From positions 7,427-71,426 of the forward strand of contig JAIXWZ010000110.1 in assembly GCA_027491035.1 (NCBI GenBank): a stretch of DNA of 64,000 nt, read 5' to 3'. The notes beneath the pieces were generated by a model, which was given only the letters and a program-made list of their open reading frames with translations, had not been told where the DNA came from and made no database searches. Both the position numbers and the translations under genes were made by a program. Shown piece after piece: positions 12,805 to 33,014 of this stretch. Each line of letters opens with the position of its first letter. Within the stretch, counting starts at the first letter, position 1. The DNA comes from Comamonadaceae bacterium (GTDB lineage: Bacteria > Pseudomonadota > Gammaproteobacteria > Burkholderiales > Burkholderiaceae_C).

Positions 12805-13728
12805 ATGAGCCAAGCTGTGGGCTGGATCGGTCTGGGTCGCATGGGCGAGGCCATGGCCAAGAAGTTGATCAAGGCCGGCCACGATGTGCGGGTCTGGAAC
12901 CGCACCGCGTCCAAGGCCGCGCCGCTGGCCGAGGCCGGCGCCACCATCGTGGCGACCAAGCAGGATCTGGCCGGCTGCGCCGTGGTGTTCACCATGGTCT
13001 CGACCACCGACGACCTCAAGGAGGTGCTGTTTGCCAGTGGCGGGCTGCTCACCGGTTCGGTCAAGCCGCGCATGGTGATTGACTCGTCATCGATCTCTCA
13101 GGAGGGCTCGGCCGAGATCCGCCAGCGGCTCGAAGCCATGGGCGTGGCGTATTTGTGCGCGCCGGTGTCGGGCAATGCCAAGGTGGCCAAGGCGGGCAAG
13201 CTGCTGCTGGTGGCCTCGGGCCCCAAGTCGCTCTACACCGAAGTCGAGCCCATGCTGCAGGCCATGGCCCGCCGCGTGATGTGGGTGGGCGAGGGCGAAT
13301 TGGCGCGGGTCTGGAAGATCGCGCACAACACCATGTTTGGGGTGGTGATTCAAAACCTGTGCGAGATCACCGTCATGGCCGAGAAGGCTGGCATTCCTCG
13401 CCACATCTTCCTGGAGAGCATCAACGACTCGGTGCTCGGCTCCATGTACACCAAGTACAAAACGCCGATGCTCACCAACCTCACCTTTGACCAGGTCACC
13501 TTCACGCCCAAGCTCTTGCTCAAGGACATGGACCTTGGGCTGGGCGCGGCCAAGGCCCACGGCGTGCCCATGCCCGCTGCCGCGGCCACGCGCGAGTCGA
13601 TCGCCCGCATGGTCGGCCGCGGCTATGACGACATCGATTTTGCGGTGCTGCTCAAGGAGGTTGCCGCCGATTCGGGGCTCGAGCTCAAGAGCGAGAACGT
13701 CAAGATGAGCGACGGCCTGGAGTCTTAA
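12805..13728 (+). CDS. NAD(P)-dependent oxidoreductase, beta-hydroxyacid (3-HIBADH/6PGD) family
   Basis: GWIGLGRMG Rossmann motif, VWNRT, catalytic Lys in VWKIAHN; RBS AGGAG upstream. Confidence 0.88.
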   Translation: MSQAVGWIGLGRMGEAMAKKLIKAGHDVRVWNRTASKAAPLAEAGATIVATKQDLAGCAVVFTMVSTTDDLKEVLFASGGLLTGSVKPRMVIDSSSISQEGSAEIRQRLEAMGVAYLCAPVSGNAKVAKAGKLLLVASGPKSLYTEVEPMLQAMARRVMWVGEGELARVWKIAHNTMFGVVIQNLCEITVMAEKAGIPRHIFLESINDSVLGSMYTKYKTPMLTNLTFDQVTFTPKLLLKDMDLGLGAAKAHGVPMPAAAATRESIARMVGRGYDDIDFAVLLKEVAADSGLELKSENVKMSDGLES

Positions 13729-13732
13729 AGCC

Positions 13733-15079
13733 ATGGCCGATCGCGCCACGCTGATCCGCGGTGCCACCGTCATCACCATGGACCGCCAGGGGGACTTGCC
13801 CCGCGGCGATGTGCTGGTGCGCGGCGAGCAGATCGTCGAGATCGCCCCTCAGATCCATGCCGAGGGCGCCGAGGTGGTCGATGCCAGCGGCCACATCGTC
13901 ATTCCGGGGCTGATCAACGCCCACATGCACACCTGGCAGACGGCGCTGCGCGGCCTGGCGTCCAACTGGACCTTGCTCGAGTACTTTGCCAAGATGCACG
14001 CCGGTCTGGCCACGGTGTTTGCGCCCGAAGATCTGCACATTGCCACCCTGGTGGGCGCGCTCAACCAGATCAACTGCGGCACCACCACGCTGGTCGATTG
14101 GTGTCACAACAACCCGACGCCGGCGCACAACGACGCGGCTATCGACGGCCTGCTGGCTTCGGGCATTCGCGCCGCGTTTTTTCATGGCACGCCCAAGCCC
14201 GATCCCAAGCCGGGCGAAAAGCCGTTTTGGGAGGTGCCGCATCCGCGCGCCGAGGTCGAGCGCCTGCTCAAGGCGCATCAGGGCCGTGCGCTCTTGTCCA
14301 TCCACGCGGCCGTGCTCGGCCCACACTACTCCACGCTCGATGTGGCGCTGCACGACTTTGCGATGGCGCGCGAGCTGGGCCTGATCGCCTCATTGCATCA
14401 GGGGGGCGGGCCTGCCCGCACGCCCGATGGCTGGCTGCGCCTGCAAGAGCAGGGTCTGCTGGGCCCACAGATCAACATCGTGCACGGCCATGCGCTCGAT
14501 GACGCGCAGCTGCAGCGTTTTTGCGACCTGGGCATGAGCTTTTCAGCGGCCGCCGAAAACGAGATGACACAAGGCCACGGCCATCCGCTGACCGGCCGCC
14601 TGCGCCAGTTTGGCCGCTCGCCCTCGCTCGGGGCCGACCTGGAGAGCGTGCTCGGCGGCGACATGCTGTCGCAGGCGCGCATTGCGCTGGGCGTGCAGCG
14701 CTCGCTGGACAACGTGGCCCATCGCCAAGCGCACGGATCCATCCCGCCCACCTCGACCCTCACCACGCGCGAGGCGCTGGGCTGGGTCACGGTCGAGGGC
14801 GCGCGCATGCTCGGCCAGCTCGACCGCATTGGCACGCTCGCGGCGGGCAAGCAGGCCGATCTGGTGCTTGTTCGCGCCAGCGATCTGAACATGCAGCCGG
14901 TGCACGATGCGGTCAACAGCGTGGTGTTTCAGACCACGCTGGCCAATATCGACAGCGTCATGATCGCCGGCCAGTGGAAAAAGCGCGACGGACGCTTGCT
15001 GGGTGTGCAACTGGCTCCGCTGCTCGATCGCTTGCAGGCCTCTGGGCGCAAGATCACCCAGGCCATGGGGCTGGCCTGA
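13733..15079 (+). CDS. Metal-dependent amidohydrolase (AtzA/TrzA/MTA-SAH deaminase-like fold)
   Basis: PGLINAHMH, GTTTLVDW, VHGH, LGAD, IGTLAAGKQADLVL. Confidence 0.85.
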   Translation: MADRATLIRGATVITMDRQGDLPRGDVLVRGEQIVEIAPQIHAEGAEVVDASGHIVIPGLINAHMHTWQTALRGLASNWTLLEYFAKMHAGLATVFAPEDLHIATLVGALNQINCGTTTLVDWCHNNPTPAHNDAAIDGLLASGIRAAFFHGTPKPDPKPGEKPFWEVPHPRAEVERLLKAHQGRALLSIHAAVLGPHYSTLDVALHDFAMARELGLIASLHQGGGPARTPDGWLRLQEQGLLGPQINIVHGHALDDAQLQRFCDLGMSFSAAAENEMTQGHGHPLTGRLRQFGRSPSLGADLESVLGGDMLSQARIALGVQRSLDNVAHRQAHGSIPPTSTLTTREALGWVTVEGARMLGQLDRIGTLAAGKQADLVLVRASDLNMQPVHDAVNSVVFQTTLANIDSVMIAGQWKKRDGRLLGVQLAPLLDRLQASGRKITQAMGLA

Positions 15080-15226
15080 AGCCATGGCGCATCAGGGTAA
15101 GCCTGCTGCCATGCGCCGTCGCTGTGGCGCACACTGCCCGTTTCGCCCAGAGCCGTCCGGTGCGCGCTCGTCCTGCGCCGGCCGGCTGACCGATTTGTTC
15201 TTCATTCCAACCCTCAGGAGACCGCT

Positions 15227-31494: not shown

Positions 31495-32200
31495 AGTCAA
31501 CCAGATCTCGGTCAATTACGGCGCTGCGCCCGCGCTGTGGGATGTCTCGCTGACCTGTGGCGACAAGGAGCTCGTGTGCGTGGTCGGCCCCAACGGCGCC
31601 GGCAAGACCACGCTGATCAACGCCGTCGCGGGCTTGCACGGCGTCAAGAGCGGCACCCTGGTGTACGGCGGGCGCGATATCACCCGTCTGGCCAGCCACC
31701 GCTACTGTGAGGCGGGCATTGCCATCGTGCCCGAAGGGCGCCGTCTGTTCACCCAGATGAGCGTGCTTGAGAATTTGGAATTGGGCAGCTTTTTGCCTGC
31801 AGCCAAGGCCAGACGGGCCGAGCGTCTGGAGTCGGTGCTGGCGCTGTTTCCGGTGCTCAAGGTCAAGCTGCACAGCCTGGCCGGATCGCTCTCGGGCGGA
31901 CAGCAGCAGATGGTGGCCATTGGCCGCGCACTCATGGCCGGCCCCAGTTTGCTGCTGCTCGATGAGCCTTCGCTGGGCCTGGCGCCGTCCATCGTGCTGG
32001 ACATGTTTGCAGCCATCACCCAGATCAACCAGCAGGGCACGGCCGTGCTGCTGGTCGAACAAAACGTGTCCATGGCGCTGGAGACGGCTGACCGGGCCTA
32101 CGTCATGGAAGAGGGCCGGATCGTGGCCGAGGGACAGGCCAAGGAGATGATGGACCGGCCGGAGATCCGAAAAGCCTATCTCGGCCTCGACACGCATTGA
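31487..32200 (+). CDS. ABC ATP-binding protein (LivF-like)
   Basis: GPNGAGKT, LSGGQQQM, LLLDEPSLGLAP. Confidence 0.92.
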   Translation: MLEVNQISVNYGAAPALWDVSLTCGDKELVCVVGPNGAGKTTLINAVAGLHGVKSGTLVYGGRDITRLASHRYCEAGIAIVPEGRRLFTQMSVLENLELGSFLPAAKARRAERLESVLALFPVLKVKLHSLAGSLSGGQQQMVAIGRALMAGPSLLLLDEPSLGLAPSIVLDMFAAITQINQQGTAVLLVEQNVSMALETADRAYVMEEGRIVAEGQAKEMMDRPEIRKAYLGLDTH

Positions 32201-32264
32201 TCGCTCGCGGCCTCTGCGCTGGTGGGGCTGGCGGGGCGGCCTGAGCAGATAATCGCCCCTGTCC

Positions 32265-33014
32265 ATGGCCCTGATCACCGATCCCTTTTTCTACGCGGTT
32301 GCCATCCCATCGGTTTTGCTGATGGGGGTCAGCAAGAGTGGCTTTGGTACCGGCTTTGGCTCGCTGGCCGTGCCCTTGATGGCGCTGGCCGTGAGCGTTC
32401 CCGACGCGGCGGCCATCATGATGCCGGTGCTCTTGCTGACCGATATCCTCAGCCTGGCTTTTTTTCGCAACCAACTCGACTGGCGTCTGCTCAAATTTCT
32501 CGTGCCTTGCGGTCTGGTGGGCACCGTGCTGGGTTTCATGCTGTTTCGGCTGCTTAGCCCCGGCGTGGTGGAGGCGCTGGTGGGCGGTTTTACGCTGCTG
32601 TTTTTGGCGCAGCGCCTGCTGTTGCCACCCAAACCCGATGCCCCGCCGCCGCCGCGCTGGGTGGGCGCCATCTTGACCGCCACTTCGGGCTTTACCAGCT
32701 TCATTGCGCACGCCGGTGGCCCGCCGATCAGCGCCTATGTGATTCCGCTCAAACTCAGTCCGGTGCTGTTTACCTCGACCATGGCGGTGTTCTTCTTTGT
32801 CATCAACCTGTCCAAGTGGATTCCCTACGGCTTTCTGGGTCTGCTGGACATGCGCAACATGCTCACCTCGCTGGTGTTGCTGCCCTTGGTGCCTTTGGGC
32901 GTTTGGGTGGGCGTGCGCCTGGCCCGCCGAATCAAGCCCGACCTGTTTTACAAGTTCATCTATGCCGGGATGTTTCTGACCGGCCTGAAGCTGCTCTGGG
33001 ACGGGCTGCGCTGA
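32265..33014 (+). CDS. TSUP/TauE/SafE family transporter
   Basis: GVSKSGFGTGFG, AHAGGPP; multi-TM. Confidence 0.87.
   Translation: MALITDPFFYAVAIPSVLLMGVSKSGFGTGFGSLAVPLMALAVSVPDAAAIMMPVLLLTDILSLAFFRNQLDWRLLKFLVPCGLVGTVLGFMLFRLLSPGVVEALVGGFTLLFLAQRLLLPPKPDAPPPPRWVGAILTATSGFTSFIAHAGGPPISAYVIPLKLSPVLFTSTMAVFFFVINLSKWIPYGFLGLLDMRNMLTSLVLLPLVPLGVWVGVRLARRIKPDLFYKFIYAGMFLTGLKLLWDGLR

Follow-up and report, generated by a model that had tools for sequence, protein, structure and literature searches.

The stretch of DNA studied here, called the window below, comprises 64,000 nt from a Comamonadaceae bacterium (contig JAIXWZ010000110.1 of assembly GCA_027491035.1, positions 7,427 to 71,426 of the forward strand). 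The source is a freshwater metagenome-assembled genome (MAG), Polaromonas-like, 3.67 Mb in size and 90% complete. Between positions 9054 (the start of pcaI) and 33014 (the end of the TauE gene), the window contains a catabolic gene cluster (Table 1). We lean towards reading this region as a conserved Burkholderiales island that would funnel polyhydroxylated benzoates via hydroxyquinol (1,2,4-benzenetriol) into the 3-oxoadipate pathway. The enzyme for entry is most likely a decarboxylase that needs no cofactor and had been overlooked, of a class so far known only from fungi, as predicted from the sequence and a structural model of a protein annotated as SnoaL_4.

The original prediction for this DNA had described a hydroxyquinol lower pathway with no recognisable entry enzyme, fed by an undescribed route. 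Every gene that it listed was present where it was placed, or close to it. The entry enzyme needed correction, since the SnoaL-like gene encodes a close structural homolog, with the same catalytic residues, of AGDC1 and PPP2, fungal gallate/protocatechuate decarboxylases that work without a cofactor. The undescribed route was upheld in part: a trio of two dehydrogenases and an amidohydrolase is uncharacterised and no published match to it was found, but the window does hold a candidate decarboxylase for the entry. The island is real and widespread, but it is not a categorically new system. The lower pathway was already known; the analysis adds a candidate decarboxylase assignment, an unexplained conserved trio and a picture of modular feeder hydroxylases.

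The SnoaL_4 protein as a candidate decarboxylase

A phmmer search of the PDB with the SnoaL_4 protein gave two strong matches, PPP2 of Madurella (7jmr, E = 3e-29) and AGDC1 of Blastobotrys (6w54, E = 7e-25), at 28–32% identity. A third match was marginal (E = 3e-4). An AlphaFold (AF2) model was built on 19 orthologs, with a predicted local distance difference test (pLDDT) score of 94.5. It superimposed on 7jmr over 205 columns with a template modelling (TM) score of 0.92 and a root-mean-square deviation of 1.6 Å, and on AGDC1 with a TM score of 0.90. The next-best fold, that of scytalone dehydratase, reached only 0.56. The NTF2-like barrel and the N- and C-terminal extensions of the family were all present in the model.

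In AGDC1, H86 and D40 form a dyad, W35 and W61 form a clamp that twists the carboxylate, R39 anchors the carboxylate, and T60, Y150 and Q192 hold the catechol hydroxyls (PMC7862292). The SnoaL_4 residues W18, R22, D23, T43, W44, H68, Y133 and Q168 were found to correspond to W35, R39, D40, T60, W61, H86, Y150 and Q192 of AGDC1, respectively. All eight were invariant in the 19-sequence alignment, and W18, R22, D23, W44 and H68 were also invariant in 30 orthologs.

The genomic context of the gene agrees with an aromatic decarboxylase. Orthologs of the receptor gene Bug2 (60–63% identity) adjoined it even off the island, in three distant loci (L107, L108 and L111; L numbers denote related loci from other genomes). 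In L110 it formed a minimal operon with the genes for maleylacetate reductase and the dioxygenase. Its other distant neighbours were a nitroreductase, an FMN reductase with a glutathione S-transferase, and a bicupin. Flavin reductases lay beside it in L108 and L111.

The position of the gene in a hydroxyquinol ortho-cleavage island suggests that the product is probably hydroxyquinol, and not pyrogallol or catechol. As the downstream enzymes are hydroxyquinol-specific, the simplest substrate would be a carboxy-hydroxyquinol. Our best guess is 2,4,5-trihydroxybenzoate, the first choice because it retains the 3,4-dihydroxy pattern recognised by the pocket.

Layout and conservation of the island

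Genes were annotated with NCBIfam and Pfam profiles, and third-position G+C was used to sort real genes from spurious open reading frames (ORFs), the G+C of the window being 64–68%. The island is bordered on the left by unrelated genes (DUF1841 at 8384–8818) and on the right by trmL (33033–33515). The first operon after pcaIJF, referred to as module A, has the order HIBADH1, amidohydrolase, Bug1, NMT1-like, AhpD-like, HIBADH2 and maleylacetate reductase, with gaps of −4 to 147 nt. It is followed by a divergent LysR gene and a 12-kb co-directional run, in the order dioxygenase, Dabb, SnoaL_4, Bug2, RutE-like, citryl-CoA-lyase-like, CoA-transferase III, Bug3, Liv-type ABC importer and TauE. All intergenic gaps in this run were about 100 nt or less, and several stop and start codons overlapped. 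A promoter and terminator scan of the window was uninformative at such G+C.

Seventy-four related loci were fetched with the NMT1-like protein as the probe (from Polaromonas, Rhodoferax, Curvibacter, Hylemonella and unclassified Comamonadaceae), and the island proteins were mapped onto them. Sequence sufficed upstream in 45 loci and downstream in 41, which serve as the denominators. HIBADH1, the amidohydrolase and Bug1 were each found in 44 of the 45 loci, and pcaIJF lay upstream of module A in 23. On the other side, HIBADH2 was found in 35 of the 41 loci, maleylacetate reductase in 33, and LysR, dioxygenase, Dabb and SnoaL_4 together in 20–22; the last three lay within 10 kb in 20–21. LysR adjoined the dioxygenase gene in 22 of the 41, and Dabb was present in 20 of the 21 loci with a hydroxyquinol dioxygenase. 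Twelve genomes seemed to be without the dioxygenase block; all 12 carried an ortholog (59–62% identity) a few kb further on the same contig. In L061, L062 and L066 the gene order was shuffled, with the adjacency retained.

A wider sample of 401 Burkholderiales genomes contained amidohydrolase orthologs (58–80% identity) in 12 genomes besides the window's own, those in the operons of other families being 58–70% identical. The dioxygenase gene lay within 5 kb of the amidohydrolase gene in nine of these 12. All 13 sampled genomes with an amidohydrolase ortholog also carried the decarboxylase (Fisher 2e-19, phylogeny ignored). Tight operons were found in three other Burkholderiales families (f61, f13 and f14; loci L097, L100, L104 and L099). 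A typical order was maleylacetate reductase, pcaI, pcaJ, HIBADH1, amidohydrolase, HIBADH2, (SDR, CMD, Bug), dioxygenase, FAD monooxygenase, TauE, NTF2-like and RutE; pcaIJF genes also occur within distant operons. The minimal form, in L098, was HIBADH1, amidohydrolase, VOC, dioxygenase and NTF2-like.

The island is one conserved functional unit and not a group of chance neighbours. The genes do co-occur in other genomes, both in about 70 Comamonadaceae loci and in three further families; their failure to do so had been named in the original prediction as grounds for giving it up. Because the linkage is kept across relatives, module A and the dioxygenase block are unlikely to be independent modules that happen to be adjacent.

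The hydroxyquinol lower pathway

Judged from sequence, the lower-pathway identities are solid and the route is the textbook one. PDB matches and NCBIfam profiles bore out what had been predicted for hydroxyquinol 1,2-dioxygenase, maleylacetate reductase and pcaIJF. The models matched by pcaI and pcaJ are at the subfamily level, and do not tell PcaIJ from ScoAB. The iron-dependent alcohol dehydrogenase (Fe-ADH) family protein matched the solved maleylacetate reductases 3hl0 (E = 3e-115) and 3w5s (E = 7e-114), over residues 2–352.

The best PDB matches of the dioxygenase were hydroxyquinol enzymes: 1tmx (E = 4e-73), followed by TcpC-like and PnpC proteins (8r2x, E = 2e-69; PnpC 3n9t, E = 4e-64). 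Chlorocatechol enzymes matched at best with E = 1e-38, and catechol enzymes with 1e-26 to 1e-32. The sequence contained the motifs RPAHMHF, GRYDVQY and CPYPVP, which may supply the two Tyr and two His ligands of Fe(III).

Two subtypes of hydroxyquinol-type dioxygenase were seen in related islands. One was 59–76% identical to that of the window and lay beside LysR; the other was about 43% identical and lay after the RutE-like gene. Both were present in L020 (14621–15430 and 18691–19455), and L012 had none at the usual place. The observation also covers loci L048, L051, L061 and L064–L066. In a Polaromonas MAG (L096, 15295–18712), the dioxygenase block was followed closely by a TRAP transporter in which a type II dehydroquinase is embedded, which suggests clustering of quinate/shikimate uptake with hydroxyquinol genes in that genome.

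Feeder hydroxylases in the relatives

Profile annotation found no flavin or Rieske oxygenase on the island. In 31–32 of the 45 related loci, a 2.7-kb insert between Bug1 and the NMT1-like gene encoded an IorA/IorB-type molybdenum hydroxylase with 2Fe-2S and molybdenum cofactor subunits. At this position the window has only a short clean spacer (Table 1). The best IorB of the window genome was a paralog of 45–47% identity in a different context. Distant operons were also found to be without IorAB.

The Curvibacter- and Hylemonella-type loci and the distant operons contained, beside LysR or the dioxygenase gene, a class A flavin monooxygenase of 552 amino acids. It consists of FAD_binding_3 and a ring-hydroxylase C-terminal domain, and belongs to the NCBIfam PRK06126 subfamily. 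Its ortholog was not found in the window genome, where the best matches were partial and 30% identical, nor in the searched genomes behind L001, L007, L012, L018, L020 and L050. Some related loci carried both this monooxygenase and IorAB, and some carried one of them.

Since the islands of relatives carry recognisable hydroxylases, we interpreted the window to hold a trimmed version of the island, and not a cluster type that is oxygenase-free on principle. A search of the rest of the genome for flavin or Rieske oxygenases, as had been recommended, located 15 FAD_binding_3 loci and four Rieske alpha-subunit loci.

The window was compared with L001, which has the same trimmed layout. For 13 genes, the synonymous divergence (dS) was 0.17–0.40, and the ratio of nonsynonymous to synonymous divergence (dN/dS) was 0.01–0.085. 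Such strong purifying selection suggested that the trimmed island is functional and not decaying.

The closest IorAB paralog of the window genome was found on another contig (C132, 14795–17394; 45–51% identity); its large-subunit match was reported to contain a single in-frame TGA. Bug receptors and genes resembling those for an alpha/beta hydrolase and an enoyl-CoA hydratase lay on either side.

The dehydrogenase–amidohydrolase trio

The nearest relatives of HIBADH1 were gamma-hydroxybutyrate, succinic-semialdehyde and glyoxylate reductases. The catalytic Lys was invariant in both dehydrogenases (Lys171 of HIBADH1 and Lys167 of HIBADH2, each in 56 of 56 orthologs). Both proteins scored below every NCBIfam equivalog cut-off.

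The nearest structures to the amidohydrolase were 8-oxoguanine deaminase (3hpa) and AtzB (7ww2), at E = 1e-21 only. Its metal ligands H64, H66, H222 and H251 were invariant in the orthologs, and an Asp aligned with the Asp of 3hpa. The Glu of the deaminase HxxE motif was absent: the window protein has H222-Q-G-G225 where 3hpa has HLAE; all 58 orthologs examined have Gly at this position, and two paralogs have Gly or Ala. With this Glu replaced by Gly, the protein was not read as a deaminase, and a different reaction is expected. Its profile, NF006056, gave no match above the cut-off in 14 control genomes.

HIBADH2 adjoined the amidohydrolase in every distant locus, and the two stood alone as a minimal recurring pair in L101 and L102. 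In the searchable literature, no publication was found in which hydroxyquinol genes are combined with an amidohydrolase, with dehydrogenases of the HIBADH type, with a molybdenum hydroxylase or with TauE. By sequence, the trio is a conserved uncharacterised sub-route, made up of a putative metal hydrolase, distinct from canonical deaminases, and two predicted Lys-type hydroxyacid or semialdehyde dehydrogenases. As a working guess, it would carry out hydrolysis to a hydroxy- or oxo-acid, followed by dehydrogenation toward maleylacetate or 3-oxoadipate.

The anaerobic phloroglucinol route consists of a reductase, a ring hydrolase and a hydroxyacid dehydrogenase. The ring hydrolase of that route belongs to the cyclase family and not to the amidohydrolases, so the likeness of the trio to it is only an analogy. 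An analogy with nicotinate fermentation (enamidase and Hgd) was set aside: Hgd (3cky) is distant from HIBADH1, and no enamidase was among the PDB matches of the amidohydrolase with E ≤ 1e-10. Deamination of aminophenol, aminohydroquinone or pterins was also considered, and was weakened by the missing HxxE Glu.

The proposed route and its alternatives

Beyond the lower pathway, the assignments of substrates and reactions are predictions that build on gene identities, synteny, residue conservation, fold and selection. In the proposed route, Bug2 would bind the carboxylated triol precursor, and the other receptors may join in. The SnoaL_4 protein would strip the carboxyl group without oxygen, most likely converting 2,4,5-trihydroxybenzoate, a protocatechuate-type acid, to hydroxyquinol. 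The intradiol dioxygenase would open the ring to maleylacetate, and the Fe-ADH family reductase would convert this to 3-oxoadipate. PcaIJ and PcaF would then yield succinyl-CoA and acetyl-CoA. Relatives would add feeder hydroxylases (the class A FAD monooxygenase, IorAB or both), and the lineage of the window, without both, would keep a working core.

Hydroxyquinol auto-oxidises to hydroxybenzoquinone and peroxide. The RutE-like flavoprotein, read by inference as a hydroxybenzoquinone reductase, would serve as a helper for this easily oxidised triol by re-reducing the quinone. The AhpD-like protein is probably a thiol peroxidase or redox helper, and its CxxC motif would provide peroxide or thiol protection. 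Dabb, together with YCII in relatives, would handle tautomers or quinones; it is possibly a tautomerase or has another role in triol handling. Such helpers have precedents in TcpB and TftG, and in the 4-aminophenol pathway with its quinone reductase.

Several points weigh against this account. In AGDC1, a central potassium site is formed by E88 and stabilised by R87, D124 and D126, and the E88A substitution inactivates the enzyme; Tyr146 contacts the third hydroxyl of gallate (PMC7862292). The potassium site was not kept in the SnoaL_4 protein, in which E88 is replaced by L70 (Leu in all orthologs), R87 by F69, and D124 and D126 by V108 and T110. For this reason the protein is termed AGDC1/PPP2-like and not a strict member of the family, and the priming of its active site must differ. 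The position of Tyr146, which is Val in PPP2, was occupied in the bacterial orthologs by an invariant Arg129 (22643–22645 of the window). This suggested that the substrate may bear another kind of substituent, possibly an anionic one. No characterised bacterial member of the AGDC1/PPP2 family was found in the searchable literature.

Other points concern the genomes. In distant genomes the decarboxylase gene was away from the amidohydrolase operon, and these operons rely on the FAD monooxygenase; hence decarboxylation may be only one entry among several. The co-occurrence counts ignore phylogeny: of the 401 genomes, 13 had the amidohydrolase, 21 the decarboxylase and 82 a gene of the hydroxyquinol 1,2-dioxygenase (HQDO) family, and all 13 carried all three. 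With a MAG that is 90% complete, the absence of the hydroxylases is certain for the island only, and not for the whole genome. The trio has no explained role in the route above. Sulfonated substrates, hinted at by TauE and by the SsuA-like fold that the NMT1-like protein has, find no place in it.

A combined account would give the trio a role. In it, freshwater and soil Burkholderiales would join the first bacterial, potassium-independent entry of the AGDC1/PPP2 family with new oxygen-free hydrolytic and dehydrogenative steps of the trio on a ring or lactone intermediate. These steps would feed or by-pass maleylacetate, and the hydroxylases would be interchangeable feeders. We regard this only as a tentative possibility, with the odds somewhat against it.

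Another explanation takes module A as an undescribed hydrolytic and dehydrogenative upper pathway, in which an aromatic amine or N-heterocyclic carboxylate enters via Bug1 and is converted to hydroxyquinol, with the amidohydrolase as the deaminase. The wide and tight linkage of module A to the hydroxyquinol genes is consistent with it, as are the cytosine-deaminase-like branch of the amidohydrolase and the insertion of IorAB, an enzyme type typical for N-heterocycle hydroxylation, in two thirds of the related loci. Nicotinate fermentation pairs an enamidase with 2-(hydroxymethyl)glutarate dehydrogenase, and the pairing of the amidohydrolase with HIBADH proteins resembles this. On the other hand, the amidohydrolase has no HxxE Glu in any of the 58 orthologs, and the hydroxyacid-type Lys in both dehydrogenases gives no pointer to imine chemistry. 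The island carries no genes for handling ammonia or amines, a pyridine-type ring could not give benzenetriol or 3-oxoadipate, and IorAB is missing from the window and the distant operons. We consider this explanation unlikely. The missing Glu and the lack of nitrogen-handling genes likewise weaken the idea of a deamination route and of the N-heterocyclic substrate allowed for in the original prediction.

Still less probable is that the region consists of two or three adjacent modules that work independently (a hydrolase/dehydrogenase set linked to Bug, the hydroxyquinol genes, and the CoA-transferase/lyase genes) that share only the 3-oxoadipate end. The CoA-transferase/citryl-CoA-lyase-like/Bug3 genes did occur in only a subset of loci (L001, L003, L007, L012, L013, L020, L050, L051, L060, L064, L065 and L103). 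The decarboxylase–Bug2 pair was elsewhere in distant genomes, the amidohydrolase–HIBADH2 pair stood alone in two loci, and Bug-linked cassettes are common in a genome with about 90 Bug paralogs. Against this, module A and the dioxygenase gene stayed adjacent through several rearrangements and across four families, usually within the short distance given above, and the module A operon ends with the island's only maleylacetate reductase gene. The independent modules that had been allowed for this DNA are unlikely for module A and the dioxygenase block, which form a conserved unit; the CoA-transferase/lyase module is facultative.

The least probable explanation is that the natural substrates are sulfonated phenolics (sulfo-hydroxybenzoates or hydroxybenzenesulfonates), with sulfite freed at entry and exported by TauE, and the sulfonate recognised by the SsuA/DszB-fold protein and/or the Arg129 pocket. 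It fits the recurrence of the TauE/TSUP permease in Comamonadaceae and in the distant operons L097 and L100, the NMT1-like fold (that of sulfonate-binding proteins and the desulfinase DszB, with a weak SsuA-family match) and the invariant Arg that replaces Tyr146 of AGDC1 in the ligand pocket; but TSUP proteins are functionally diverse, the NMT1-like fold match is generic (13–19% identity), the distant operons are without the NMT1-like gene, and no known desulfonating oxygenase, sulfite dehydrogenase or sulfonate-specific regulator is present.

Comparison with known systems

The route proposed above, with decarboxylation to hydroxyquinol, resembles the gamma-resorcylate/resorcinol clusters, reportedly graABCDEF in Rhizobium sp. 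MTP-10005 and tsdBADC in Rhodococcus jostii RHA1. These are said to follow the same logic, in which a non-oxidative decarboxylase yields a phenol that is passed to hydroxyquinol 1,2-dioxygenase and maleylacetate reductase. The reductase of the island matched the structure of GraC (3w5s, above). In contrast, the decarboxylase candidate of the island has the NTF2/SnoaL fold and is not a metal-dependent amidohydrolase_2 protein, and the island adds the trio, Dabb, the RutE-like and the AhpD-like proteins. The island contained no PF04909-type decarboxylase and no flavin monooxygenase or resorcinol hydroxylase, and was therefore not assigned to the gra/tsd pathway.

With AGDC1 (Blastobotrys adeninivorans, 6w54/7kd9) and PPP2 (Madurella mycetomatis, 7jmr), the window protein shares the fold including the C-terminal extension (TM 0.90–0.92), the His-Asp dyad, the Trp clamp, the carboxylate Arg and the Thr, Tyr and Gln residues. 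It differs from them in being bacterial, in lacking the potassium site and in having Arg at the position of Tyr146.

The chlorophenol lower pathways are reportedly encoded by tftEFGH in Burkholderia AC1100 and tcpRXABCYD in Cupriavidus JMP134. A small alpha+beta-barrel partner of hydroxyquinol dioxygenase and maleylacetate reductase is common to these and the island: TftG is said to be a YCII-family protein, and YCII is present in relatives of the island. TcpB, reportedly a nitroreductase-fold quinone reductase, is comparable to the RutE-like protein. Unlike these pathways, the island has transport genes for carboxylates and no FADH2-dependent chlorophenol monooxygenase or flavin reductase; its carriers are lineages of pristine freshwater, and nothing in it points to halogen chemistry.

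The cytosine-deaminase-like amidohydrolases (3hpa, AtzB 7ww2 and TrzN) share with the island enzyme a TIM barrel and the mononuclear metal ligands HxH, His, His and Asp. They have the proton-transfer Glu of HxxE, whereas the island subfamily, similar at E = 1e-21, has Gly.

The aerobic breakdown of aromatics passes through few central intermediates, of which hydroxyquinol is one; most of the feeders known for it are oxygenases that act on pollutants. Abundant Comamonadaceae of lakes (Polaromonas, Rhodoferax, Curvibacter and Hylemonella) commonly carry the island, which also occurs in three further Burkholderiales families. Its spread in lake lineages suggested that a natural polyhydroxybenzoate, probably derived from plants, humic matter or photochemistry, is a regular carbon source. 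The island also offers a candidate for the first bacterial AGDC1-type cofactor-free decarboxylase. Such enzymes are wanted for the production of muconate and pyrogallol because they need no prenylated flavin. The comparison of loci further isolated the trio as a three-gene unit strictly tied to ring cleavage, and the feeder hydroxylases were seen to be swapped in and out of a stable core.

Receptors, transport and accessory genes

Table 1. Positions of the island features in the window, with the supporting matches
Feature	Position	Strand	Basis and remarks
pcaI, 3-oxoadipate CoA-transferase subunit A	9054–9755	+	TIGR02429, 368 bits, above cut-off (subfamily-level model)
pcaJ, 3-oxoadipate CoA-transferase subunit B	9758–10399	+	TIGR02428, 283 bits, above cut-off (subfamily-level model)
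pcaF, 3-oxoadipyl-CoA thiolase	10472–11674	+	TIGR02430 equivalog, 701 bits (cut-off 597); NF006551, 730 bits, above cut-off
HIBADH1	12805–13728	+	NAD_binding_2 and NAD_binding_11; PDB 3pef, 3pdu, 3doj, E = 1e-37 to 1e-39
Amidohydrolase, PRK08204 subfamily	13733–15079	+	NF006056, 559 bits (cut-off 391)
Bug1, TctC-family periplasmic carboxylate receptor	15227–16177	+	PF03401, 237 bits
Spacer, 76 bp	16178–16253		Clean; at the position of the IorAB insertion
NMT1/SsuA-like, class II binding-protein fold	16254–17162	+	PF13379; AF2 pLDDT 91.8
AhpD/CMD-family protein	17178–17774	+	PF02627; C81-x-x-C84 in 48 of 48 orthologs
HIBADH2	17771–18658	+	NAD_binding_2 and NAD_binding_11; second beta-hydroxyacid dehydrogenase family member
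Maleylacetate reductase, Fe-ADH family	18658–19716	+	PF00465, PF25137; PDB 3jzd, E = 4e-149
LysR-type regulator	19969–20897	−	Divergent from the dioxygenase operon
Hydroxyquinol 1,2-dioxygenase, intradiol	21092–21934	+	PF04444 (Dioxygenase_N) and PF00775 (Dioxygenase_C)
Dabb, dimeric alpha/beta-barrel	21931–22239	+	PF07876, 82 bits; weak ABM match; start overlaps dioxygenase stop
AGDC1/PPP2-like predicted hydroxybenzoate decarboxylase	22259–22876	+	205 amino acids; annotated only SnoaL_4; phmmer, fold, residues
Bug2, carboxylate receptor	22917–23900	+	PF03401; paired with the decarboxylase gene
RutE-family nitroreductase-fold flavoprotein	23995–24579	+	NF003768, 266 bits (cut-off 152)
Citryl-CoA-lyase-like	24641–25438	+	Facultative module
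CoA-transferase family III	25435–26586	+	Facultative module; 4-nt overlap with the lyase-like gene
Bug3, Bug/TctC receptor	26603–27571	+	Facultative module
Liv-type binding protein	27611–28813	+	Matches generic Leu/Ile/Val-binding proteins only
LivH, LivM-LivG fusion and LivF of Liv-type ABC importer	within 27611–33014	+	Profile matches
TauE/TSUP-family anion permease	32265–33014	+	

Neither the NMT1-like protein of the window nor any of its orthologs had a signal peptide, which places the protein in the cytoplasm. Foldseek gave generic matches to SsuA, TauA, NrtA, Thi5 and DszB with TM scores of about 0.8, and there was no PDB sequence match. The gene was found only in the Comamonadaceae versions of the island. 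A 52%-identical paralog with a lipoprotein signal peptide was located on another contig of the genome (C142, 3612–8797). Its neighbours were a thiamine diphosphate (ThDP) enzyme, a small SnoaL-like protein, a VOC-fold protein and a Bug receptor, and the group looks like an uncharacterised catabolic cassette.

Among the helper genes, a CMD-family gene was also found in the distant operon L097. The RutE-like gene was linked to the dioxygenase gene in near and distant clusters alike. In relatives, a YCII protein lay between the dioxygenase and Dabb; it was absent from the window.

The Liv and TauE genes directly followed RutE in L035, L043, L057, L061 and L066. In the window, a LivM-type permease and a LivG-type ATPase were fused in a single ORF of 591 amino acids (29719–31494; PF02653, PF00005 and PF12399).

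Between pcaF and HIBADH1, a MazE-like antitoxin gene (PF04014) and a PIN/VapC-like toxin gene form a pair at 11734–12544, for which tblastn found no match across the 74 related loci. The gap between pcaF and HIBADH1 is 1131 bp in the window and about 650 bp in L001.

The four uptake receptors that had been predicted were all found, as three Bug/TctC receptors and one Liv-type binding protein. There were about 90 Bug/TctC paralogs in the 3.7 Mb of the genome, at least four of them within the window's first 28 kb; a fifth Bug receptor was located by tblastn downstream of the island on the same contig.

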